Origin: a virus
Lineage: Duplodnaviria > Caudoviricetes
IMG/VR virus record: IMGVR_UViG_3300028844_006787
Length of the DNA stretch: 64,000 bases
Direction: 5' to 3' (one strand)
This document shows positions 25,258 to 59,841 of the stretch, one piece after another (within the stretch, counting starts at the first letter, position 1; the number at the start of each line of letters is the position of its first letter). The position numbers and the translations under genes were made by a program. Below the pieces are notes generated by a model. The model ran no database searches. It was not told the DNA's origin and worked only from the letters and a program-made list of their open reading frames with translations.

Positions 25258-25675
25258 TTTTCTCCCAACGATTATCATAATTTAATCTGAAAGTACCTAC
25301 GTAATTGTCGTATCCACCAACACGTTCATTAGGAGCAAACAATGAAATAGTATGCTTGTGTGTTGCATTGTGCTTGGTGTATAAATGATACTCGTTGCCT
25401 ATAACAGGTTTCAAACGAAATTCTGCATTGAACATAATATCATTCCATTTAAAGTCTTCCGCAAGTTCTTCAAATTGCTTTTTAAGTGCTTCAAATTTGT
25501 CTGTGTAATGTTTGTTTGCTGAATGAACTGCTCCGTGTTTCCAACCTGTTAATGAGTGATCAGGTTTAATTACAGGTGCGACCAAATCACTTGCATAAGG
25601 CAATGAGTTCGGATGTGGAACTACATTATCAGGAATCTTTTTCTCGGAATTTATTTCTTCTTCTCGGTCTTCCAT
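25250..25675 (-). CDS. DUF2452-like protein
   Basis: LPYASD..AP.I.P...YNAEF-like FNAEFRLKPVIGNEYHLY...ISLFAPNE...GTFRLNYDNRW. Confidence 0.75.
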   Translation of the reverse strand: MEDREEEINSEKKIPDNVVPHPNSLPYASDLVAPVIKPDHSLTGWKHGAVHSANKHYTDKFEALKKQFEELAEDFKWNDIMFNAEFRLKPVIGNEYHLYTKHNATHKHTISLFAPNERVGGYDNYVGTFRLNYDNRWEKIK

Positions 25676-25989
25676 TTACCACCTGCATCTTTATACATCT
25701 TGGCAGCCCATCCGTTTGCATAAGCAGAAGGATAAACATCAAACTTCTTTTTTGCTTGTCCTACCCAATATGCCCATTTGCTAGGAGAGGTTGGAACATT
25801 CTTTTCAAGAAATAATTGCATTCTTTCTTCTAATGTTTTTCTTTCCATTTCTTCTTTCACTGGTTTTGATTTTGTATCTTTTCCTGCTTGTCGTTTTTTA
25901 CGACCTGCACAATGTGCTTTTTGACTAAATCCTTTGGGTTTGCTACAATCTATTTTCTTTTTGTAGTCGTTGCTCCACTCTTCGTTCAT
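25651..25989 (-). CDS. two-module basic protein (candidate head cargo)
   Basis: EWSNDYKKKIDCSKPKGFSQKAHC module + KFDVYPSAYANGW module joined by VKE/FLE sites. Confidence 0.7.
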   Translation of the reverse strand: MNEEWSNDYKKKIDCSKPKGFSQKAHCAGRKKRQAGKDTKSKPVKEEMERKTLEERMQLFLEKNVPTSPSKWAYWVGQAKKKFDVYPSAYANGWAAKMYKDAGGKWKTEKKK

Positions 25990-26336
25990 GAACCTTTTCC
26001 TGTTCCACTTTTTTTACCACTTTTCTGTGTGTAGGTGCTAACATTGATTGGTTTCTTTCCGTTTCTTCCTGCGGATTCTTTTCCACCTCGGTCTGCATCA
26101 TTTTGGGCTGCTCGTTTTCTACGAGTTGCACTTTCTTTTTCTTTGTCAGACATTTTGCTTGCAGTTGCTTGTGGAACGCATTTAGCATATCCTCGTTTGT
26201 CACCACTTGTACCACACGGAGGATGCTTTCCATCATCATCTTTTTTACCGATGTTCACCCACTTACTTTTAAACCAATTACGTAAATCTTCGTCAATAAT
26301 TTCACGAATGATTTGTTTTAGTTCTGATTTCTTCAT
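25986..26336 (-). CDS. leader-bearing basic protein (start revised to MKKSELKQIIRE)
   Basis: Leader then LRNWFKSKWVNIG...PCG...YAKCVP module. Confidence 0.75.
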   Translation of the reverse strand: MKKSELKQIIREIIDEDLRNWFKSKWVNIGKKDDDGKHPPCGTSGDKRGYAKCVPQATASKMSDKEKESATRRKRAAQNDADRGGKESAGRNGKKPINVSTYTQKSGKKSGTGKGS

Positions 26337-26788
26337 TAAAGATTTCCCCAAAGTTCCTTCCAGTTATCATAATCTTTTGATATATATTTTCTTAAATCTT
26401 TGTCTAAATCTGAACGAACTTGTTCTGCTCCTTTTGGTGTGTGACCCATCGCATCTCGCAAAGCAATTAAAGCAAGATATGCTTTACGATGTTTTTCATA
26501 ACCAGCCTTTTTTGCGATAAAAAGACGTGCTTCCAAATGTTGATTGCGACCAGTCATTCGGGCAATCTTTTTTAATTCTTTATCAGAATATTGTCCGTTC
26601 CTACGTATAGATGCCTCACCTCTTTTTGTGGATAAAACTTCGGAAAGTTCTGTTTGTAAAAATTCTTTAATTTCTGATTTTTTCATTGTAGTATTTTTTG
26701 TTGTTCCTGTTGATTTTATTTCAACATCTTTATTCCAATCTTCTACAAGAATATCTTGAATTAACTTTTTAAGTTCACTTAGTTTCAT
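26336..26788 (-). CDS. leader-bearing protein (start revised to MKLSELKKLIQD)
   Basis: TATTTATA at 26792-26799; second internal leader MKKSEIKEFLQTELSE. Confidence 0.75.
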   Translation of the reverse strand: MKLSELKKLIQDILVEDWNKDVEIKSTGTTKNTTMKKSEIKEFLQTELSEVLSTKRGEASIRRNGQYSDKELKKIARMTGRNQHLEARLFIAKKAGYEKHRKAYLALIALRDAMGHTPKGAEQVRSDLDKDLRKYISKDYDNWKELWGNL

Positions 26789-26831
26789 GCATATAAATAT
26801 ATATAAAACTAAATATTTGACAACAAATAAA

Positions 26832-27104
26832 CTACTCAATAAACGGAGCAATGAATTTTTTCAACTCAACAAGTTCATAAGCAACACGTTGCTCTCCACT
26901 TTCATTCTCAATATGAAACATCAATGAAGAAATTCTTTCGTTTAATTCGGATATAAGTTCTATGCTATCTTCGTCACCACCATCTGCTTCTTCACAAATT
27001 TTTGAGAATGTATCGGTTGATACCCATTTATCAAGAAACTCAAGATGGTTTTCGTTGGCAGAGAAATCTCCGTATAAGTGATCGTGATTATTTTCGTTGT
27101 TCAT
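26832..27104 (-). CDS. acidic hypothetical protein
   Basis: TTGACT-N17-TATTAT 7 nt before ATG. Confidence 0.7.
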   Translation of the reverse strand: MNNENNHDHLYGDFSANENHLEFLDKWVSTDTFSKICEEADGGDEDSIELISELNERISSLMFHIENESGEQRVAYELVELKKFIAPFIE

Positions 27105-27153
27105 GGTTTATATAATATAATTTCCACGAAGTTAAGTCAAATCAAATGTTTAT

Positions 27154-27222
27154 AAAAAAAGAGTTGTTACCAAGATAAACTCGATAACAACTCTGGGAGA
27201 TGATGGTGATATAAAGATATAT
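27154..27222 (-). ncRNA. candidate ~70-nt small RNA with own promoter and terminator
   Basis: TTGACT(27252-27257)-N17-TAATAT(27229-27234); no ATG in transcript; hairpin AGAGTTGTTA...TAACAACTCT + U-run at 27154-27194. Confidence 0.6.
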
Positions 27223-27273
27223 ATATGTATATTATGATTTTATTTCAAAAAAGTCAATTTTTTTTATTTTTTT

Positions 27274-27606
27274 TTACGAAACATAAGCATTTAATTCAAA
27301 ATTACCACTTTCCATGCCATAAACTTGGAAATGAAGATGCTTACGTTGAGGTTTTCCGTTCTTGGTTAATGCAACACTAAACGAATTGCTTTTGCCTACA
27401 CTTGGTCTTGCTCTTCTGTATTTTCCACCAAATGCAACCTCGGTTGTCCAATTTTCTTCGTCTATTTCAAATCCTTTTTTCTCTGCAACTTTTCGTGCTT
27501 CTTCAGCCGCAGACGTAAAAGACTTGTGATAAAGTTTATATTTGTATTCTTTAAGAAGTTTCTGAAACTCTTCTTCTATAACTTGTTTTAATTGTGTTTT
27601 GTTCAT
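27274..27606 (-). CDS. leader-bearing protein
   Basis: MNKTQLKQVIEEEFQKLLKE leader + YHKSFTSA...RPSVGK...LHFQVYGMESGNFELNAY module. Confidence 0.75.
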   Translation of the reverse strand: MNKTQLKQVIEEEFQKLLKEYKYKLYHKSFTSAAEEARKVAEKKGFEIDEENWTTEVAFGGKYRRARPSVGKSNSFSVALTKNGKPQRKHLHFQVYGMESGNFELNAYVS

Positions 27607-28091
27607 TAGAATCCTATTGAAATAACTTCTCCGTCAAATTCAATCCAACGATACTTAGGAGCACCACCTTTGCTTAAATACGCAATGGTATCGGATGTAT
27701 GTCGTTCTGATGATGCTTCTATAACTGCTATAAGTCCGTGTATTCCATCAAACGCAGTTTGTGGTCTGCCTTTAAATAACTTTGTCCAATACTTAATAGA
27801 AAGTTGTGCTTTTTTATCCATTGACTTGATGTCAACTTCACTTGCTTCTGTGATTTCTTTAGTCTTGGGACTTCTATCTTCACCAACAATTTCCCAATCT
27901 TCAATTCCAAGTTTCTTCATTTCCTTACGAAGTTCTTGGTTTATCTTTTTGACTTCAGGTGAATCTGCTCCGTGTTTATCACGTGCTTGAAGTTTTGCCA
28001 AAAGCAAATTGCTATACTTTAAATACTTGGATTTTTCGGTAAGAGTTTCACTTTCCGCAATGATTTTTTCAAATGCTTTGTTGATGTCCAT
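27606..28091 (-). CDS. two-module protein (start revised to MDINK)
   Basis: Tandem TATTTATA at 28095-28112; LTE/ITE junctions. Confidence 0.7.
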   Translation of the reverse strand: MDINKAFEKIIAESETLTEKSKYLKYSNLLLAKLQARDKHGADSPEVKKINQELRKEMKKLGIEDWEIVGEDRSPKTKEITEASEVDIKSMDKKAQLSIKYWTKLFKGRPQTAFDGIHGLIAVIEASSERHTSDTIAYLSKGGAPKYRWIEFDGEVISIGF

Positions 28092-28214
28092 AACTATAAA
28101 TATATATAAATACAAAAAAACTACTCTTCATCGTCTATATTCATTAGAAGTCCGAATATGAATAATAGCAAGGTAAAACCCATACCAACATACAATAGTA
28201 TTTCGTACCACATA

Positions 28215-28649
28215 TTACTCGTCAATAGTAACACTAAATGTGTCACCCTGACGAATGCTAGGAATCAATTCAATTCCTTCAGTAACCTTTCCAAAACAAG
28301 TATGAAGTCCATCAAGATGAGCAGTTGCTTGACGTGAATGAACAATAAAGAATTGTGAACCACCTGTATTGGGTCCTGCGTGTGCCATACTTAATACTCC
28401 TGTGTCGTGATGTTGATTGTCACCATTAACTTCACAATCAATTTGGTATCCTGGTCCACCACTTCCTGTTCCATGTGGACATCCACCTTGTGCTACGAAT
28501 CCGTCAATTACTCTATGAAAGTTTAATCCTTCGTAGAATCCTTTGTTTGCTAAATCGCAAAAGTTCTTCACCGTATTGGGTGCATCGTTATCATAAAACT
28601 CTACTTTGAGAGTGCCTGCATTTGTTGTAATTGTTCCTGTTGTACTCAT
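28215..28649 (-). CDS. ppiB: cyclophilin-type peptidyl-prolyl cis-trans isomerase
   Basis: APNTVKNF...GFYEGLNFHRVIDGFVAQGG...GVLSMAHAGPNTGGSQFFI...HLDGLHTCFGKV. Confidence 0.97.
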   Translation of the reverse strand: MSTTGTITTNAGTLKVEFYDNDAPNTVKNFCDLANKGFYEGLNFHRVIDGFVAQGGCPHGTGSGGPGYQIDCEVNGDNQHHDTGVLSMAHAGPNTGGSQFFIVHSRQATAHLDGLHTCFGKVTEGIELIPSIRQGDTFSVTIDE

Positions 28650-28694
28650 AATAATTGAAATATATTACACAAATAATATACCAATTGCAACTTT

Positions 28695-28958
28695 TTAATT
28701 ACATTTTACGATTCTAAGAGTGCAATCGTTTGAACCTTTAATGATTCTATGAAATGAATTTTTTGGAATAGATATTTTTTGATTCAAAGAAATTGGAAGT
28801 TGATCATCAAATTGAAACTTCCAATCCGTTTCGTGCAATGCTTCTATTTCACGGTCTTCACGATCAAGATGCCATACTAAATCTGTTTCGGGTGTATTTT
28901 CGGAGAATGTACGAATATAAATGTTTTGCCAAATTTTATGTTCTATATATGGTTTCAT
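28695..28958 (-). CDS. cupin-like conserved phage protein
   Basis: LVWHLDREDR...WKFQFDDQLP...IPKNSFHRIIKG. Confidence 0.65.
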   Translation of the reverse strand: MKPYIEHKIWQNIYIRTFSENTPETDLVWHLDREDREIEALHETDWKFQFDDQLPISLNQKISIPKNSFHRIIKGSNDCTLRIVKCN

Positions 28959-29479
28959 AATAATTTTGTAACGGTTCTTGCAAGAGCATGAACTTTTGTT
29001 CCACCAACCGCAGTTCTTAATGAATTAACTGAACTTTGCATAAACTCTGAATCTTTAATTAAATCAAATACTTCTATTCCAGCATTGAATGCCATAAGTA
29101 ACACAACTAGTGCAAACAGAATATGAGTTACTTTATTGATTTGCTTTTCATCTTTGGTAAATAAACCCACTGCTTTGCGAATCGGAAACATAAATCGTTT
29201 ATCGTTTGCTTTAACAAAGTTTTCAATTTTCTCTGCAGCTGCTTGCCCTTTACCAAATTCGTATTTTTTGCTTATGCGTTTTACAAGTTTGCTTAATAGT
29301 CCCATGATACCATTGCTTAACATTACATAAGCAACGATACTTAATACTACTTCGTTTAGTTGTTCTTGATTTTCAAGTTCGTCTTTTAATTCTTTTGCAA
29401 GTTCGTCCGCAATATCAACAAACTCATTTCCAAGTTTGCTTTCTAATTGTATTTCGGAAACTAAACTACCAAGTTTCAT
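28955..29479 (-). CDS. hypothetical protein with hydrophobic helices after an LNE site
   Basis: MKLGSLVSEIQLE leader, QLNE, two hydrophobic segments. Confidence 0.65.
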   Translation of the reverse strand: MKLGSLVSEIQLESKLGNEFVDIADELAKELKDELENQEQLNEVVLSIVAYVMLSNGIMGLLSKLVKRISKKYEFGKGQAAAEKIENFVKANDKRFMFPIRKAVGLFTKDEKQINKVTHILFALVVLLMAFNAGIEVFDLIKDSEFMQSSVNSLRTAVGGTKVHALARTVTKLL

Positions 29480-30073
29480 TTACCAATAGGTATTTTGATT
29501 ATCACCCATTCCAAGTTGCTTTGCATATCGTGGAAGATTGCAAGACCAATATCCAGGAGAGGTTCTATCTTTCTTGGTTGAACATTTATGACGGTCTGCA
29601 AATGCTTTGCGTCTTTCTGGATCTTTGAACTTCACACTAAGACCTGTGGTATCTCCAAAAGAAACTTTACGAACATTACCACTTTTTGGGTCTTTAACAT
29701 AAACATAAAACTTTTTATCTCCACCACGTTTTGGTTTATTAAGTTCAACATCTTTGCCTTGGTATTCAACTTCGTGAATTTGAAATGGACAATCCAATGG
29801 AACTCGTTTTCCTTCATATTCACCCCATGTTCCAATATCAGTATTTTCAATTAAATGTTTATCAACTTCACTCAACTGAATTTTATTTTTAGCATTAAGT
29901 TTTCTTGCTTCTTCAAATAAATCAATATATGAATCTGAACCATAACGAAATACTCCTTCTACTAGAGTAGAATGATTATCAAGATGAAATTGAAGATGCT
30001 TGGATGTTGATTGAATATTAAGAAGATTGTGAATTTCTTCTTTAATAACTGATTTTAGTTTTGCGATTTTCAT
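29480..30073 (-). CDS. leader-bearing two-module protein
   Basis: MKIAKLKSVIKEEI leader; C-terminal EYQGKDVELNKPKRGG...KVSFGD...RRKAFADRHKC...GYWSC module. Confidence 0.8.
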   Translation of the reverse strand: MKIAKLKSVIKEEIHNLLNIQSTSKHLQFHLDNHSTLVEGVFRYGSDSYIDLFEEARKLNAKNKIQLSEVDKHLIENTDIGTWGEYEGKRVPLDCPFQIHEVEYQGKDVELNKPKRGGDKKFYVYVKDPKSGNVRKVSFGDTTGLSVKFKDPERRKAFADRHKCSTKKDRTSPGYWSCNLPRYAKQLGMGDNQNTYW

Positions 30074-51332: not shown

Positions 51333-52616
51333 TTAAGCAAGTATCTTATTGATTATTTTACCATCGTGGGCAACCTTGAACGGACGACCACTTGGTGAAT
51401 AATGAGTTTTTTCTAATCTTAAACCAAGAGTATGAGCAATCGTCGCATTAAGGTCTTCTACGGATGCTCCTTCTTCTTCTATATAGTGTGCCCGTTTATC
51501 ACTAACTCCATATACACTTCCACCTTTAATGCCCCCTCCTGCAAGCAATGCACTAAATGCAGTAGGATGATGATCACGACCTACACGACCTGCTTTAACT
51601 TCAGGTGTTCTTCCGAATTCACTAGCAACAACAACCATTGTATCGTTTAGTTTGCCCCGTCTATCTAAATCCAATAATAATGCTGATAATCCTTGGTCAA
51701 GTGTAGCACCACGTGTTGCCATTCCACCGAATACATCATTGTGCATATCCCAACCACCAAGTTGTACTTCAACGAAACGTACACCGGTTTCCACCAAACG
51801 ACGTGCAAGCAAGCATCCTTGTCCAAAGTTATTGTCTCCATACAACTCACGTGTTGCTTCAGTTTCTTCACTTAAATCAAATGCTTTTAGATCGTTGCTA
51901 CTCATTAATTTTACAGCATCGTTATATAAATCAGTATAAGCACGAACTTGCTTTTGTGAATATTCATTCAAAAACATTTTGTTGAACTCTTTTGCAGTTG
52001 TTAAACGATCATCATAAAGATTCTGCTCAAGATAATCTGCTACACGTGAGTTTTGAATTCCACTACCAGGACGACCGATGGGAAGTGGTCCATGTTTGCT
52101 TTCAAGAAATCCTGCACCAAGAACATCACTTCCTCCGTTGATGCGTACATGAGCAGGAAGAGTTGCATTTAATTTACCTGATAAATGACTTACCCAACTA
52201 CCTAAAGTTGGATGTTTGATTGTTCCTCTGCGTTGATATGATGTATGAAGCAAGTAATTTGCTTGTTGGTGTGCTCCTTGATTACTTGTTAAACTACGAA
52301 TCAAAGAAGCATTGTGCATTTGCTTTGCAGTATTCGGCAACCAATGTCCTAATTGAATTCCATCGGCACTTGTTGAAATCGCAGTTGTTTCACCCATTAC
52401 ATCAGGATTCTCAGGTTTAGGATCAAATGTATCTACATGAGTCATTCCACCTGACATATACAAAAAGATTACATGACGAGCAGTAGGTACTTTTCCAGGT
52501 ACCTCAAACGCAAGTAAATCTTCCGTACTTAAAATAGCACCAACTCCTAAACAAGTTTTTGCTATTCCTTTAATAAAACTTCTTCTTGATAATTCGTCTT
52601 TTAATAGATTTTCCAT
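51333..52616 (-). CDS. DUF1501 family protein with Tat signal
   Basis: SRRSFIK twin-Arg; IFLYMSGGMTHVDTFDPK, FGQGCLLARRLVETGVRFVEV, GWDMH, EFGRTP, GRDH. Confidence 0.93.
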   Translation of the reverse strand: MENLLKDELSRRSFIKGIAKTCLGVGAILSTEDLLAFEVPGKVPTARHVIFLYMSGGMTHVDTFDPKPENPDVMGETTAISTSADGIQLGHWLPNTAKQMHNASLIRSLTSNQGAHQQANYLLHTSYQRRGTIKHPTLGSWVSHLSGKLNATLPAHVRINGGSDVLGAGFLESKHGPLPIGRPGSGIQNSRVADYLEQNLYDDRLTTAKEFNKMFLNEYSQKQVRAYTDLYNDAVKLMSSNDLKAFDLSEETEATRELYGDNNFGQGCLLARRLVETGVRFVEVQLGGWDMHNDVFGGMATRGATLDQGLSALLLDLDRRGKLNDTMVVVASEFGRTPEVKAGRVGRDHHPTAFSALLAGGGIKGGSVYGVSDKRAHYIEEEGASVEDLNATIAHTLGLRLEKTHYSPSGRPFKVAHDGKIINKILA

Positions 52617-52640
52617 GATATTTCTTTCTTTATAAGTATT

Positions 52641-54764
52641 TTATCGTATAAAAATGAATTCGTGTGAGTTCATAAGAATCCACGCAACGTGTCTTGCTCC
52701 GTTTGGTTCATCTATATACTTTTTGAGTAAACGCAGTTCGGCACTATTTGGTTTGCGATTTAGTATACTCATAAAAATGTCCTCAATTTTTCCTGTTTCA
52801 CGTTTTTCTTGTGCCATTTGTTTCATAAAGTCTGCGTTTTTGTTATTGATAATACGTTTTTCCACGAAACCATTCAGCAGATTAAGAACCTGTGGTGTTG
52901 TTGCTTCAAAGTTTGAGTTTTCAATAAGTGCTTTGTCACTTCCACCAAACTGACGAATAAGATGCCCACCAGGAGCAGGATAACCCACATAACTGCTTCT
53001 TATTAAATCACGATCTTTTAATTTCTTTGCTTCGTATTTACCTTCTGCTTCATTTAATTGCTGAACCACATCCGCAAGATTACGACTTGGTTTTTCTGTG
53101 TTTGCTAGATACTCTTTAAGTTCCGCAAAAATGTCACTTGCGTTTTGATCTTTGTAACGATCATAAACTGCTTGATACTTTTCATCGTAATTGCTCGGAA
53201 ATCGTTCAGGTGAATCAATATCATTATATACCAATGTTACCAATGAATCCCAAATTTGTTCTCCTGTCATTCTTTGAAGAGGAGGTCCTGCAAAGTAAAA
53301 TGTTTCGGGACTTGCATAATCATCTTTAACACTATCACGTGTAAATAAATCCATGCTATAAAGAACCCTCATAAATTCTTTTACATCATAATCAACCGAT
53401 GCCATAATTTTCTCAAGATAACTAAGTAGTTTCGGATTGCTTGACTCGGTGTTGTCGTTCATATCATCCACGGGTTCAATCAATCCAATTCCAAATGCTC
53501 GTTTCCATAAACGATTCACAATAACAGTAGTAAATCGTGGATTTGCTTCTGATGTAATCCATTCCGCAAATTGTTTGCGACTTTTAGGTAAATCAGTTCC
53601 TTGCTCAATTTTCAATGGTGGTGCAAATATTGCTTTCGCATGAAGTGTATCACCAGGTTTAGCATCATCTTCCATAAACGAATCATTAAGTTTGATTGTT
53701 CCTTTTCCAAGTTCATCGTCTAGTCCGTATCCAAGAATATCACGAATATAATTTCGATATTGTTGTAGTGTGTTATTTTCCGGTGATGTATCTTGACGAA
53801 CAAGACGATTAAATTCATTTACCAATTTAGAGTTTTCTTTGTATTGAACACGACTAACTCCGTCTGTGAATGCGGCCATTTCATAAAACTGCTTTTGTGT
53901 CCATTTATCAAATGGATGATTATGACACATAGCACATTCTAAACGAGTTCCAAGAAACACTTGTACCGTGTTTGCAAGGTTATCTAATGGCATACCACGA
54001 TCACGAAGATAAAAACCTATTGCTTCGTTGCCTGGTTCATAATAAGCACCTTCTGATGCAATTAGTTTTTGCACGAACTCATCAAACGGAGTATTATTGC
54101 GAATTTCATTGCGAACAAACTCACGATAACGAAATCCACTATTAATGTTTGTATCATTAAGTTTGTTTTGAATACGAAGAATATCACTATAATAATTCAA
54201 CTGATGACTAATATAACCTTCACTATTCAACAACTTATTGATTAGTTTGAGTTTATTTCCACGCATTTCATTTTTAAATTCATCTATTTCAGATTTACCA
54301 GGAATCCTACCTATTATTTTAAGATATGCTCTACGCATAAATGTATAATCATCAGTATCACGAGTTGGTCTTTGACGTTCACTACGAAGTTTCTCAAGAA
54401 CCAACGCATCTGCATAAGCCGCAAACTGCTTGATTTGCTTTTCTTTTAGTGGTCTTTCTAATTTAGGCACATTGTAATCTGCCGTCATATAATCATCTTT
54501 GATCATGCGTTGCGAAACTAAAGCAAGAGCATTTACATTTAAACGAAACAACTGCAAATCACCTTCTCGTTGAAACAATACAGATTCTCCGTCAAACTCG
54601 ATAACTTTACCGGTTTGCTCCTTTCCGTTGGCACTAATAATCGTAACTATCTTTCTTTCCTGAGATAGTTCATCAAGTTTATCTTTGTCAATTCTACTAC
54701 CCGACTCTGAATATACTGGAACACAAATCAATAGCAATGTTGCTATAAACGTAATATATTTCAT
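52641..54764 (-). CDS. DUF1549 (PSCyt2) + DUF1553 (PSD1) protein, secreted, with N-terminal SHD1-like domain
   Basis: FMRRAYLKIIGRIP, FLGTRLECAMCHNHPFDKWTQKQFY (CxxCH), NRLWKRAFGIGLIEPVDD, RMTGEQIWDS, W.LMNSHEF. Confidence 0.93.
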   Translation of the reverse strand: MKYITFIATLLLICVPVYSESGSRIDKDKLDELSQERKIVTIISANGKEQTGKVIEFDGESVLFQREGDLQLFRLNVNALALVSQRMIKDDYMTADYNVPKLERPLKEKQIKQFAAYADALVLEKLRSERQRPTRDTDDYTFMRRAYLKIIGRIPGKSEIDEFKNEMRGNKLKLINKLLNSEGYISHQLNYYSDILRIQNKLNDTNINSGFRYREFVRNEIRNNTPFDEFVQKLIASEGAYYEPGNEAIGFYLRDRGMPLDNLANTVQVFLGTRLECAMCHNHPFDKWTQKQFYEMAAFTDGVSRVQYKENSKLVNEFNRLVRQDTSPENNTLQQYRNYIRDILGYGLDDELGKGTIKLNDSFMEDDAKPGDTLHAKAIFAPPLKIEQGTDLPKSRKQFAEWITSEANPRFTTVIVNRLWKRAFGIGLIEPVDDMNDNTESSNPKLLSYLEKIMASVDYDVKEFMRVLYSMDLFTRDSVKDDYASPETFYFAGPPLQRMTGEQIWDSLVTLVYNDIDSPERFPSNYDEKYQAVYDRYKDQNASDIFAELKEYLANTEKPSRNLADVVQQLNEAEGKYEAKKLKDRDLIRSSYVGYPAPGGHLIRQFGGSDKALIENSNFEATTPQVLNLLNGFVEKRIINNKNADFMKQMAQEKRETGKIEDIFMSILNRKPNSAELRLLKKYIDEPNGARHVAWILMNSHEFIFIR

Positions 54765-55945: not shown

Positions 55946-56089
55946 TTATTTGCATTTACAATCAGAGCAATTTATTTTACAAGGTTCGCAATAGCAGTAA
56001 TTATCTCCGTTACATTTCTTAAGAGTTCTTACATTAGAAGTATTGCAACCCAATAAAAATAAAGAAAATATAGCAATTAAGTATTTCAT
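55946..56089 (-). CDS. 47-aa Cys-rich lipoprotein (missing from ORF track)
   Basis: MKYLIAIFSLFLLGC-NTSNVRTLKKCNGDNYCYCEPCKINCSDCKCK; lipobox LLGC; ATGA overlap with upstream gene. Confidence 0.75.
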   Translation of the reverse strand: MKYLIAIFSLFLLGCNTSNVRTLKKCNGDNYCYCEPCKINCSDCKCK

Positions 56090-56802
56090 TTTTTATTAAG
56101 AAGTTTTTCGGAGTTCCATAAATCAGCAGGATTCTGTGCAAGATCAAGAACTTGAATTCTTGCTTTTGTAACTCCATGTTTATCAGTTAAAATTTTTACA
56201 ATCTTTTTTGCTTCTGCGTGAGATTTTGCTTTGGTGTAAAGTAACTCTTCACGTTTTGCTCCTGGTGGTATTCCCCAAATTGGAAACTCTTTTTCAGATT
56301 CGTGTATTCCTCCTGCAGGATTTACATCTAGATCATTAGTCATATCAGAGGCAAGATAATCACGAGCAATATTAAGATAGTCCGCAGATTTGCTTACTTT
56401 ATCCATTAACCAATTTGGTATATCTTCATCGTCATTCATATTCGCAAGCATTTGTAATATGTTTTCTGAATCTTCACACGCAAGTTTAAGTTTTCTTCTA
56501 AGATAAGAAGCATCTCCTTTACCTGAATGATCTTCATTTATATCCTCGGAAAAACTTACTTTTTTATCTTTTGCATTTACAACATAAGTTGTTTGTTTTG
56601 CATTGTGCTTTTTAGCACTTTTTATTGCATCTTTTTGATTTGAAAACTTTTTACGATTGTCATAATCTGTGAACTTATTGTTGTCCCCAAGATACATTTC
56701 ATCGTTTTGTGCATTTGGACGTTTAACAAAAAATTCTGCTTCTGTTAATGCAGATAATTCTTCTCGGACAATTTCTTTGAGTTTTTGCTTTGTAATTTTC
56801 AT
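56086..56802 (-). CDS. leader-bearing three-module protein
   Basis: MKITKQKLKEIVREELSALTE leader; INE and IHE junctions. Confidence 0.8.
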   Translation of the reverse strand: MKITKQKLKEIVREELSALTEAEFFVKRPNAQNDEMYLGDNNKFTDYDNRKKFSNQKDAIKSAKKHNAKQTTYVVNAKDKKVSFSEDINEDHSGKGDASYLRRKLKLACEDSENILQMLANMNDDEDIPNWLMDKVSKSADYLNIARDYLASDMTNDLDVNPAGGIHESEKEFPIWGIPPGAKREELLYTKAKSHAEAKKIVKILTDKHGVTKARIQVLDLAQNPADLWNSEKLLNKK

Positions 56803-57101
56803 TATTTAATTCCATGTTTCACAAGAAACTTTTTTGCAAGAATCACACCACTATGAGGTGTTTCCATTTTGTATCTTTCGGTATTACTTAACTTTTGATA
56901 TGCTCTAAAAACATTTTTAAGTTTATCTACATCATATGAAGTTTCTTTTGATAAATGATCAACAAATTTTTTTTCATTACTATATCGTCTCATATCAAAT
57001 GAAATCTGATTGATAATGAATTGAAAGTCGGTCAATTGCTCATTTAGAACTGCAAATTCCTCTCGGACAATTTGCTTGATTCTGTTTTTGGAAATTTTCA
57101 T
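56802..57101 (-). CDS. leader-bearing single-module protein
   Basis: MKISKNRIKQIVREEFAVLNE; module homologous to C-terminus of 58880..59782. Confidence 0.8.
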   Translation of the reverse strand: MKISKNRIKQIVREEFAVLNEQLTDFQFIINQISFDMRRYSNEKKFVDHLSKETSYDVDKLKNVFRAYQKLSNTERYKMETPHSGVILAKKFLVKHGIK

Positions 57102-57685
57102 CAATGATCTCTTGCTTTCTTACGAAGACGTTTAAGTGCATTAAATACTTCTCCAATTGCAAGACGATCTTGTTCTACAAAATACAATAAATCACAAACT
57201 GCGTGAGTAACTTCACCAGCATATCCTTTTAGTTTATTGTTTTTTGATACTTTGCGGATTGCAGTATGCATATCAAAATACAGTGATTGAAACTCTTTAA
57301 ATTCTGATTTACCGTTTGCTGAACTTTCATCAACGTCTGCTTCACTTATATTAAGTTTTGCTTTGATTGCTTTTTTAAGAATTGTATCACGTTGAGCATC
57401 GTTTTGTGACATCCATACACTATCGTATGTATTGCCATCTCCGTTGTCGTACAAATCTGTATTAAGTTTTTTTGGAAGAATTTTATGAAATAGACGATTG
57501 TTGTAACTATCTTTTCCACCTGCAATTTTAGCAAATACCATACGCAGAGTATTTTTAACAGTTTTGAAATCTGTATCTTTATCAACAAGATTTGCTTTTT
57601 TCATATTATCAAGAATCACAAGTGCGTCTTTTAAAAACTGCTTTTTGTGTTCAGGTGATACTTTTACTTCATTTACTTTTTTCAT
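57101..57685 (-). CDS. two-module protein
   Basis: MKKVNE start; ISE/VDE junction. Confidence 0.75.
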   Translation of the reverse strand: MKKVNEVKVSPEHKKQFLKDALVILDNMKKANLVDKDTDFKTVKNTLRMVFAKIAGGKDSYNNRLFHKILPKKLNTDLYDNGDGNTYDSVWMSQNDAQRDTILKKAIKAKLNISEADVDESSANGKSEFKEFQSLYFDMHTAIRKVSKNNKLKGYAGEVTHAVCDLLYFVEQDRLAIGEVFNALKRLRKKARDH

Positions 57686-57978
57686 TTGTCATCGGGTCCT
57701 ATTGCTAAATGATTTTTGAATATTCCGAAGATTTCATTGCTAGGAATATATCCAGGAAGAAGTTTGCTTAAATCAGTTGCAGACATTCTTTTTTTCTTTT
57801 TTAAATCTTTTTCAAGTTGTTTCATTCCTTTTGAACCAAGATACTCATCTTCCCAATCAAGATTCTTTTTGATGGTGTCAAGAATAGTTTGTGTTGGTAA
57901 GTCCTTGGAAGTATGAGGACGCATTTCGTTGAGTTCCTCACGAACGATTTGTTTAAGTTGTTCTTTTGTAATTTTCAT
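57682..57978 (-). CDS. leader-bearing protein
   Basis: MKITKEQLKQIVREELNE. Confidence 0.8.
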   Translation of the reverse strand: MKITKEQLKQIVREELNEMRPHTSKDLPTQTILDTIKKNLDWEDEYLGSKGMKQLEKDLKKKKRMSATDLSKLLPGYIPSNEIFGIFKNHLAIGPDDK

Positions 57979-57984
57979 TTTAAA

Positions 57985-58342
57985 TTATTTTTTTAAAATA
58001 CTTTCTATTTTGTTGATATAAGTTTTAAGTGTTTTTAAATAAATTTTTGAATCAGTAACTATATTACCTGTTGGTTTAAATTTAAAAGTTTTACTGAAAA
58101 CTACATTACCATCTTCATCGTTTACTTGAATTGGTATTACTTCTTGTCCGTCCCATCCTAGTGTGGCATAAATTGTACAATCAGGAAACTTTGGATTTTC
58201 CCATGCCCAACTTCCACTCATTCCTTCTACTTCGAGTTTCCAACCCATAAGATTTACTCGTTTTTGTAAAAGAAATTTTTTAAGATTTACATTATCTACT
58301 TCTTCACGAATAATTTCTTTTAATCTGTTTTTTGAAATTTTC
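57985..58342 (-). CDS. leader-bearing protein (ORF track 57985..58344)
   Basis: MKISKNRLKEIIREEV. Confidence 0.75.
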
Positions 58343-58883
58343 ATAACGAAGTTCTAAGACCTGTATGTTGTTCAAACGCATCACGAAGCATATCCGCATA
58401 AATTCCTTTTGCCTTGCTTTTTACTTTTTCTTTGTAGTTTCTTACCGAAAGAAATTCAACATCGTAAGTGTCCATGCTATTCAAATTAATACGAACATAA
58501 TTTACACCTTTTGAATTTCTTCCGATTTTAAATACAACTCCTTTTGGTCCCAAAAAGAAATCTTTTGCTCCAGTCATTGCAATGAAACGACCACCACCTA
58601 GTTGTTTAATAACTTCAGCACCTTGTCGTTTATCCATTCCTTCTGTTATGGATTTCAATTCTTCCTTAATAATTTCTTTGAGTTTTTCTTTGATGTCACT
58701 TATAGGAATAATATCTTCTTCACCCGAAGATGGTTTTACTTTTACAAAGTTGTGTGCGAAACCTTTTCCTTTTCCACCGAGTTTAAGCACTTTTGCTTTT
58801 TTATTATTTTTAAGAGTTACAGTATCTCCGACTTTTAATTCTTCACGAATTATTTCTTTTAGTTTTTGTTTTGTGATTTTCAT
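58341..58883 (-). CDS. double-leader two-module protein
   Basis: MKITKQKLKEIIREE + SH3/KOW-like LKVGDTV; internal KLKEIIKEELKSITE + QLGGGRFIAMTGAK module. Confidence 0.8.
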   Translation of the reverse strand: MKITKQKLKEIIREELKVGDTVTLKNNKKAKVLKLGGKGKGFAHNFVKVKPSSGEEDIIPISDIKEKLKEIIKEELKSITEGMDKRQGAEVIKQLGGGRFIAMTGAKDFFLGPKGVVFKIGRNSKGVNYVRINLNSMDTYDVEFLSVRNYKEKVKSKAKGIYADMLRDAFEQHTGLRTSL

Positions 58884-59782
58884 TTTTTGATTCCTAACTT
58901 TGCAAGAAACTTTTTCATTTTACCTACATCAGTTTGCAGTTCAAATCTATCTTTAGCATTTACTTTCCAATATGCTTTAAACAACTTGATAAGTGTTTTT
59001 TCATCGTATTGAGTATCATCTGACATAAATTTAGCAAAATCACGTTCGGTGTAGTGATCCATTGCATTACTAAGTTGATCAATTAGAAAATCATAATCGG
59101 ACATTGCTTCCGTTACAAAATCTTCTTTAAGTGATGCTTGTAGTTTTTTTAAAATCTTAGCAATGTGTTTTTTAACATCACCTCTAAGTCTACTTTTGTT
59201 TTTTGCAACAATGTCGGCAAGATAATCTACTTTGAAATACTTTAATCCTTTTGTAGTTGCCATAGGATGTGATTCATATCCAAGTGCGTTGATTAAACCA
59301 ACTGCAAGTTGTTGCTCAAGTGAAGATAAAGCACTTGCGTCTATATTTGCTCCACCTTCTTCTGAAATGCCTTCACGTCTCATGCGTTTTCCACGTTTAT
59401 TGGTTTTTCCACCACGTTCATCCCAAACAGAACCCTTGCATTGTTTCATTGCCTCGGAATAAGAATAACCCATTCCCATGTAATCTTGAATGCAGTCGTG
59501 CATTTCTTCGTTGATTGCTTCTGCAAGACGAACTTCACGTTTGTCTCCACCATAAAGTGTTACAGTTGAAGTGCGACCTTTTTTTTGTACATCAACGTGA
59601 CCTTTTAGTTTTCCACTATCATGCACCTTAACAACAACTCCATCGTGGTTACCATTAAATTTTACTTCATCACCAACTTTAAACTTTTGGTTTTCATTAA
59701 CAAGTTCTAATAACACTTCACGAATAATATCTTTAATCTTGTGATGTGATTCTGTTTCATTTGTTTCCTGTGAATTTTCCAT
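58880..59782 (-). CDS. four-module protein (start revised to MENSQ)
   Basis: KIKDIIREVLLELVNE leader; INE, ISE, VTE junctions; TATTTATT 3 nt upstream. Confidence 0.8.
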   Translation of the reverse strand: MENSQETNETESHHKIKDIIREVLLELVNENQKFKVGDEVKFNGNHDGVVVKVHDSGKLKGHVDVQKKGRTSTVTLYGGDKREVRLAEAINEEMHDCIQDYMGMGYSYSEAMKQCKGSVWDERGGKTNKRGKRMRREGISEEGGANIDASALSSLEQQLAVGLINALGYESHPMATTKGLKYFKVDYLADIVAKNKSRLRGDVKKHIAKILKKLQASLKEDFVTEAMSDYDFLIDQLSNAMDHYTERDFAKFMSDDTQYDEKTLIKLFKAYWKVNAKDRFELQTDVGKMKKFLAKLGIKK

Positions 59783-59841
59783 AACAATAAATATATATTT
59801 GTTTGATAAAGAATTCAACCAAATATAGTGAATTATGGATA

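Follow-up and report, generated by a model that had tools for sequence, protein, structure and literature searches.

The stretch of DNA under study, referred to throughout as the window, is 64,000 nt long and represents positions 15088-79087 of a 205,483-bp metagenomic contig (IMG/VR record IMGVR_UViG_3300028844_006787; JGI 3300028829, Ga0309783_1000079), which also has a 155-kb counterpart in ENA (ERZ27295583 k141_411269) and is part of the genome of an uncultured marine phage of about 205 kb. Between positions 59782 and 56086, on the minus strand, it carries an array of seven consecutive, translationally coupled open reading frames (ORFs), P7 to P1, five of which (P6, P5, P4, P2 and P1) code for proteins with the common N-terminus MKI[TS]Kxx[LI]K[EQ]I[IV]REE, hereafter called the leader or tag (Table 1). 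Degenerate copies of the leader are also found inside two of the proteins, at residues 67-81 of P6 (KLKEIIKEELKSITE) and residues 14-30 of P7 (KIKDIIREVLLELVNE). Adjacent genes are joined by ATGA overlaps at the P7/P6, P6/P5 and P4/P3 junctions and by one-base TGATG/TAATG overlaps at P3/P2 and P2/P1, with a 6-nt gap at P5/P4, and no clear Shine-Dalgarno sequence was seen at any junction of the seven-gene array. An initial inspection of the DNA letters (the sequence-only reading) had described both a run of seven coupled genes and a leader common to five of the products that recurs inside P6 and P7; both descriptions hold, the former on the evidence of ORF calls and junction overlaps.

Table 1. 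Genes and other features of the array and its ends; coordinates refer to the window, and lengths are in amino acids (aa).
Feature	Coordinates	Strand	Remarks
P7	58880..59782	-	300 aa; putative polyprotein
P6	58341..58883	-	180 aa
P5	57985..58344	-	119 aa
P4	57682..57978	-	98 aa
P3	57101..57685	-	194 aa
P2	56802..57101	-	99 aa
P1	56086..56802	-	238 aa; putative polyprotein
47-aa ORF	55946..56089	-	ATGA overlap with P1 stop; lipoprotein-type signal (LLGC), Cys-rich tail, no leader; also called as a gene in the ENA copy
Promoter-like motif TATATTTATT	59786..59795	-	3 nt before P7 ATG; heads the array

The leader is conserved at the protein level, since its codons differ at synonymous sites: across the five leader-coding stretches, third-codon-position identity is 0.59, and codons are shared at 60% of the identical residues. 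Conservation at the DNA level, as a recombination cassette would show, was thus not observed for the leader here. Because the alignment between P2 and P7 extends through the P2 leader, P7 has a third, decayed copy (residues ~205-225) in front of its P2-like module. Six-frame scanning of the window with the strict and core versions of the motif yielded no further copy beyond the array starts and the internal copies. A second cluster with looser leader variants lies at 25651-30073 and includes MKKSELKQIIREIIDE and MKLSELKKLIQDILVE, as well as the internal variants MKKSEIKEFLQTELSE, MNKTQLKQVIEEEF and MKIAKLKSVIKEEIHNLL.

The proteins can be subdivided into small modules, many of which end in a hydrophobic-x-Glu tripeptide (given below after the residue numbers). 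In P7, an acidic N-terminus and the leader-like helix (14-30, VNE) are followed by a beta-barrel module (31-92, INE), a Cys-containing two-helix module (93-141, ISE), a helical module (142-225, VTE) and a P2-like helical module (226-300). P6 combines a leader (1-16), a small beta-barrel-like module (17-66, IKE), the internal leader and a C-terminal module (82-180) that belongs to phrog_9437, a family which in many phages consists of free-standing proteins of ~95-110 aa and is listed in PHROGs as being of unknown function; homology in this module begins no more than a few residues from SITE/G (here and below, the slash marks the putative cut). In P1, the leader (1-21, LTE) precedes module A (22-90, INE), the acidic helical module B (91-168, IHE) and module C (169-238). 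The remaining proteins have simpler layouts: P2 is composed of a leader (1-21, LNE) and a helical module that is a paralogue of the one at the end of P7, P4 of a leader ending in REELNE (site at Glu18) and an unrelated basic module, and P5 of a leader (1-16) and an unrelated module. P3 lacks the long leader and instead starts with the short sequence MKKVNE (site at Glu6), ahead of segments P3N (7-115, ISE) and P3C (116-194). Among relatives, P3N can be found after a canonical MKITK leader (...LAE/AKISPADKKQF), fused to P1 modules, and P3C follows a leader in the homologue P0275; in view of these P1-family arrangements, P3 of the window therefore consists of two modules which, in relatives, occur behind a tag or in fusions.

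BLAST comparison of the array with itself aligned residues 7-99 of P2 with residues 213-299 of P7 (34% identity over 93 aa, E 2e-14), and also connected the leader and beta-barrel modules of P6 with those of P7. The sequence-only reading had spoken of mostly unrelated small basic modules; they are indeed mostly unrelated, with the P2/P7 C-terminal module and the P6/P7 barrels as two exceptions, and are basic in 14 of the 15 predicted products (pI 8.1-9.9), which range in size from 49 to 108 aa. Searches of the modules against Pfam, PHROGs and ESM Atlas, and by sequence against PDB, returned only phrog_9437 and weak matches, among them one of P3 to phrog_308, annotated as ‘internal virion protein’ (E 0.003), and Foldseek and VIA yielded nothing more specific than an SH3/KOW/Tudor-like barrel of generic type (DUF4314-like) and helical hairpins, likewise generic; the resemblance of the barrel modules to SH3/KOW/Tudor-like barrels and DUF4314 proteins came with weak scores. 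No module matched an anti-defence or host-takeover function in Pfam, PHROGs, PDB, ESM Atlas or Foldseek searches, and such a role, initially proposed for these modules, is therefore a conjecture.

Comparison with relatives shows that, among homologues of P7 and P1, modules are gained, lost and exchanged as whole units. P7 has 77 homologues, which are 178-515 aa long and encoded on contigs as large as 594 kb. In these the P2-like helical module is present once, twice or three times, N-terminal, Cys and C-terminal modules are optional, and in P0071 and P0072 the barrel module is located directly after a canonical MKITK leader. The P7 family also has an N-terminus, MENSKSIVE, in common. For P1, 57 homologues were found, with the orders leader+B+C, leader+P3N+B+C, leader+P3N+C, leader+P3C+C, C+kinase and others. 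One P1 homologue of 412 aa, P0284, has module C, then LFE/G, and then a P-loop kinase domain of the zeta-toxin/AAA_33 type; enzyme domains can therefore belong to jointed proteins.

To locate the module joints, we chose a motif-free anchor word inside each module type, ten of which had a usable anchor; this analysis and that of homology breakpoints replaced indel calling based on high-scoring segment pairs, which gave too few events. Of the 262 distinct contexts from the P7 and P1 families, which represent ten unrelated module types, 256 have a [LIVM]-x-E that precedes the anchor by a fixed number of residues, and for most module types this distance is constant within one residue. At the putative cleavage site, P1 is always occupied by Glu and P3 by I, V, L or M, and P1′ is usually one of N, E, D, G, S and A. 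The P2-like helical module is preceded by [IV]xE in 42/42 contexts, and Glu168 of the P1 protein forms one of only two invariant columns in the alignment of the 57-homologue family. Homology breakpoints cluster near the sites in both families (P=0.0002 for P7 and P=0.026 for P1). In the AlphaFold model of P7, stretches with a low predicted local distance difference test score (pLDDT) at 20-32, 80-90, 123-143 and 220-226 correspond to all four joints, and in that of P1, which is poor overall, all three joints fall into low-pLDDT stretches; the leader is modelled as a helix.

The interiors of the modules present the reverse picture. Within the 1,033 interior residues of the array, [LIVM]-x-E occurs once versus 11.0 +/- 2.8 times expected by shuffling (P=5e-5), and the controls [LIVM]-x-D, -Q, -K and -N are not depleted, occurring at or above expectation. 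In 196 other cargo segments, [LIVM]-x-E is slightly depleted (z=-2.2) and the controls are enriched (z=+4 to +8). The earlier proposal that modules are joined at [ILV]-x-E is supported by comparison, both by the presence of sites at the joints and by their avoidance in the interiors. The proteins display the features expected of protease-processed polyproteins in general, namely folded modules, conserved sites in predicted flexible linkers and avoidance of sites inside the modules.

The leader is by no means confined to this phage. Its back-translated pattern matches 48 IMG/VR contigs and yields no match in 32.2 million bacterial and archaeal contigs (596 Gb). Beyond residue ~22 or so, the tagged proteins are mutually unrelated. 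In a set of 43 non-redundant tagged proteins from IMG/VR and the window, the Glu of a [LIVM]-x-E site occupies position 21 in 17 (P~1e-19) and position 18 in five (P~6e-4), compared with a per-position background of 1.6%; this terminal part of the leader lay outside the search pattern. A profile search with the leader, which the sequence-only reading had suggested, was run with 30 columns and matched 4,279 cluster representatives among 1.84 billion at E<=1e-3, mostly at residue 1, which places the leader in at least 4,279 protein clusters. The best 150 of these matches contain 121 N-terminal and 54 internal leaders; a [LIVM]-x-E site is found at positions 17-23 in 118 of these 175, and another such site lies 2-6 residues upstream of 24 of the 54 internal ones. 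Judged by its sequence distribution, the leader is portable, heading thousands of unrelated proteins. Two to four leaders per protein are common among the profile matches P0078-P0227, with internal leaders often placed after x-E-[NS]-K; such multi-leader proteins may represent stop-less tandem genes with retained and possibly used start codons, or recent fusions. No PHROGs family was matched by ten tagged IMG/VR proteins, a tblastn search of cultured phages with the 21-aa leader consensus, too short a query, gave no match, and no mention of the motif was found in a literature search.

We also inspected the fifteen largest other tag-bearing contigs for head genes. Peptidase_S77 is encoded by ten of them, including all five of 105-194 kb, and one further contig has a T4-type portal at its cut end, so that T4-type head genes are found on 11 of the 15; the four contigs with neither S77 nor portal are fragments estimated to be 35-71% complete, and no HK97-type S78 protease was found in these four. 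Wherever a contig has both, tagged and protease genes share a strand and are 1-15 kb apart. In two contigs, G004 and G005, the portal gene is separated from the protease gene by several small genes, and further small genes come between the protease and the major capsid protein. The genes preceding the protease include those for a tagged 125-aa protein and a 218-aa protein starting with MKRSRLNEIIKEEVQNFLLNE, in the position of T4 core genes 67/68, and those following it code for modular proteins rich in [LIVM]-x-E, in the position of T4 scaffold gene 22. LLDE/V and LLRE/S are found in the capsid proteins of G005 and G001 upstream of a conserved VRR motif, presumably at about the place where T4 gp23 loses its N-terminal part (the delta-domain). 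The part removed from gp23 in T4 amounts to the N-terminal 65 residues (PMC9958956). Between portal and protease, G005 has a second shared N-terminus on two adjacent small proteins (L021 7919-8392), MDKKTWNKILNENTLNE and MDKKTWNKILNENTLVSE, both of which end in a hydrophobic-x-E site. A further contig, G015 (IMG/VR 3300007770_000522, 37 kb, CheckV 97% complete), contains two tagged genes, an S77 protease and a match to the T4-type portal in a 1,440-aa frame, and is unusually small for a genome with T4-type head genes.

Sequence comparisons lend good support to the architecture of tag and joints and to its association with T4-type head modules. We consider it probable, with a likelihood of roughly 0.6, that the array codes for head-internal cargo, in an enlarged polyprotein version of the T4 system composed of a capsid-targeting sequence (CTS) and the gp21 protease. 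The leader, as an amphipathic helix of ~21 residues with the full consensus MKI[TS]Kxx[LI]KxI[IV]REE[LI]xx[LIV]xE, would act like the T4 CTS and dock the protein in the prohead scaffolding core; a prohead protease of the T4 gp21 type (Peptidase S77), cutting after Glu in [LIVM]-x-E, would remove the tag, and would also sever the module joints of P7, P6, P1 and probably P3. Around 15 small, mostly basic folded domains would be freed in this way and kept in the head with the DNA, probably entering the host together with it, and new cargo could be acquired by gene fusion and cassette exchange at a tag or joint. From the interpretation offered by the sequence-only reading, the portable tag, the sites at its end and at the joints, the shuffling and the S77 linkage in relatives are retained; targeting, cleavage, retention in the head, injection and module functions we infer, with the effector role being conjectural.

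Several observations weigh against the cargo interpretation. No S77 protease, capsid or portal gene was found in the window by a PHROG scan of its 55 ORFs, and the array is located among accessory genes, not head genes. Sixteen of the 43 leaders have no site at positions 16-23, and in P5 candidate sites are present only inside the leader (LKE-10 and IRE-14). The first residue of the internal leaders is Met in 45 cases and Val, Leu or Ile in eight (Met, Val or Leu in 52 of the 54), and this start-codon residue could reflect internal translation starts, not processing. Where cultured phages encode the phrog_9437 module as a free-standing protein, it has no tag, and the leader pattern gave no match in five cultured marine T4-like phages, Syn9, S-PM2, P-SSM2, P-SSM4 and HTVC008M. 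As regards the joints, the avoidance test used module boundaries that coincide with the sites themselves, with homology backing their placement, and conservation of a joint inside a family is in part due to inheritance. Per protein, [LIVM]xE motifs exceed the shuffle expectation only modestly in number; the idea that their totals are enriched was rejected on that account, and the signal is positional.

The same targeting and cutting could also serve proteins of another kind, namely components of the prohead core or scaffold, like T4 gp22, gp67 and gp68, which would contribute to head assembly or size determination, would later be degraded or expelled and would not be effectors. In T4, gp21 degrades these three proteins to peptides (PMC9958956), and the location of tagged genes at the gp67/gp68 position and of site-rich modular proteins at the gp22 position in G004 and G005 agrees with such an assignment, as does the lack of an effector-like match for any module in our searches. 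The array modules, however, are conserved and folded, with sites limited to linkers and strongly avoided inside, which fits products meant to survive the protease; moreover, the array is remote from head genes, its content varies between relatives in the manner of T4 internal-protein loci, and one relative contains the zeta-toxin/AAA_33 kinase module. We regard a core or scaffold role as a serious, if unlikely, alternative to packaged cargo.

We give still less credence to the view that the leader is an uncleaved amphipathic helix serving as an oligomerisation or partner-binding handle on cytoplasmic, non-virion proteins, with [LIVM]xE being part of helix and linker grammar. It would accommodate the accessory-gene setting and the lack of a protease gene in the window, the leaders that have no terminal site, and the start-codon residue kept at internal leaders, as if modules were also made separately. 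It would, however, leave unexplained the depletion inside modules of [LIVM]xE but not of its xD, xQ, xK and xN counterparts, the invariant Glu before ten unrelated module types, and the restriction of the leader to viruses together with its physical linkage to S77 head modules, and we find it rather improbable. Finally, chance, an annotation artefact or a nucleic-acid element (a repeated translation-initiation region, or a recombination site encoding a peptide), for which an AT-rich genome, Lys-rich N-termini and tight gene coupling might speak, is effectively refuted by the codon comparison and the scan of cellular genomes, given the absence of matches in 596 Gb of cellular DNA versus 48 viral contigs, the 4,279 profile clusters, the low third-codon identity and codon sharing, and the in-frame internal copies.

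If the packaged-cargo interpretation is extended beyond this array, the leader would define a general plug-in virion-cargo system of uncultured T4-related phages, in which any protein fused to the tag or to a [LIVM]-x-E joint would be loaded, cut free and delivered; members of at least 4,279 clusters would then be injected, and the P7 and P1 families would represent evolving ‘cartridges’ with modules swapped between phages. We put this broader proposal forward tentatively, at slightly under even odds. Should it be true, possession of a sequence tag would by itself identify thousands of dark-matter phage proteins as packaged in virions and delivered to the host, a class that in T4 includes anti-restriction and host-takeover factors, and such cargo would evolve by cassette exchange at protease joints; a design rule provided by nature may also become available for placing foreign proteins inside large phage heads. 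Were it to prove wrong, an explanation would still be needed for a 21-residue helix that is specific to viruses and occurs on thousands of proteins.

The motif heading the array (TATATTTATT) had been described as late-type: it does head the array, with ‘late’ being an interpretation. The form TATATTTAT[AT] occurs seven times in the window versus 2.9 expected, and two operons of the second leader cluster (28104 and 26801) have the TATATTTATA motif 3 nt ahead of their first ATG, as P7 does. The motif is unlike the sigma70-like CTTGACTTTTTATAATA promoters that flank the array (63504 and 55940), and it is plausible that TATATTTATT-type motifs constitute a separate, co-regulated promoter class. The sigma70-like promoter, CTTGACTTTTTATAATA(A/T)TTTTGGTA, is represented by ten highly conserved copies on the minus strand (63504, 55940, 48903, 48457, 44711, 35722, 35125, 24265, 23907 and 22763), probably corresponds to the early class of this phage, and, when read in frame, gives rise to spurious ‘MTFYNNFG’ ORF starts. 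The short ORF at the downstream end of the array is probably the last gene of the transcription unit and not cargo, and could code for a spanin-like or exclusion lipoprotein.

Elsewhere in its genome, the phage encodes rIIA and rIIB, identified in the PHROG scan, together with a split alpha subunit of DNA polymerase III (PolIII alpha), ligase, UvdE, many glycosyl- and sulfotransferases and a DUF1501/DUF1549/DUF1553 set; sulfotransferases and ferredoxin were among the further PHROG matches. The phage-borne DUF1501 gene and DUF1549/DUF1553 (PSCyt2/PSD1) pair, with an adjoining AMP-binding enzyme, are located at 51333-54764. DUF1501 and the PSCyt2/PSD1 pair are typical of Planctomycetota and Verrucomicrobiota, and may hint at the host. 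No close relatives were found in IMG/VR with PolIII alpha, P3 and the P7 alignment as queries, or among GenBank phages with the DNA and P7 as queries. The nearest PolIII alpha among GenBank phages belongs to a 484-kb uncultured phage, LR756508.1 (43.5%), which has a Peptidase_S77 prohead protease containing an intein; the intein-like insert in this protease (L059 1474-3198) comprises ~370 aa between ...GELDHPD/C and N/SSVVNL, where the slashes mark its ends. The rII genes and the S77 protease of LR756508.1 count in favour of the cargo interpretation, and the latter, together with the ten S77-encoding tag-bearing contigs, is an indirect hint that the window phage may have such a protease.

Comparison with known systems places the array closest to phages of the T4 type. 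In giant phages such as phiKZ and SPN3US, many head proteins are processed at A/S/G-x-E (PMC5694885). As proposed for the cargo described here, many head-internal proteins of phiKZ, 201phi2-1 and SPN3US are cut after Glu by a gp21-related protease, at several sites in some cases; they make up paralogous families and, upon DNA ejection, leave the head as well (Thomas et al.; PMC5694885, PMC10052503, PMC7411985). The residue at their cleavage position P3 is small, whereas that in the array families is I, V, L or M in 256/262 contexts, as in T4, which sets them apart from the phiKZ type; in addition, phiKZ-type propeptides are often longer than 100 residues and are discarded, in contrast to the conserved folded modules between sites and the short common leader of the array. 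Like T4 genes 67 and 68, the genes of the tagged proteins of G004 and G005 lie between portal and protease, and one and the same protease would act on these proteins as on the T4 core proteins gp22, gp67 and gp68. In T4, the core proteins end up as peptides. The window array lies outside any head cluster, and a PHROG search detected no sequence similarity between tagged proteins and T4 core proteins.

The likeness to the T4 internal proteins (IPs) is more extensive. Mullaney and Black reportedly described, in 1996, the CTS of T4 internal proteins and its removal by gp21. IPI, IPII, IPIII and Alt are loaded into the prohead core of T4 by means of a CTS of ~10 residues, which gp21 cuts off after Glu; the T4 internal proteins are diverse, with only the CTS being conserved, and it has been proposed to be a general cargo-recruiting device (PMC9026906, PMC3012670, PMC9958956). 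In both systems a short N-terminal propeptide is the sole common part of unrelated, mostly basic small proteins and ends in hydrophobic-x-Glu (not universally so in the case described here), and the loci vary between relatives and are located apart from the head cluster; tag-bearing relatives encode an S77 protease. The tag, at ~21 residues versus 10 in T4, is not the same peptide by length, and its relation to the T4 CTS is best described as a functional analogy. Unlike the T4 internal proteins, several of the putative cargo proteins, as known from their genes, are multi-module polyproteins with joints and internal tags, and their common leader heads thousands of families.

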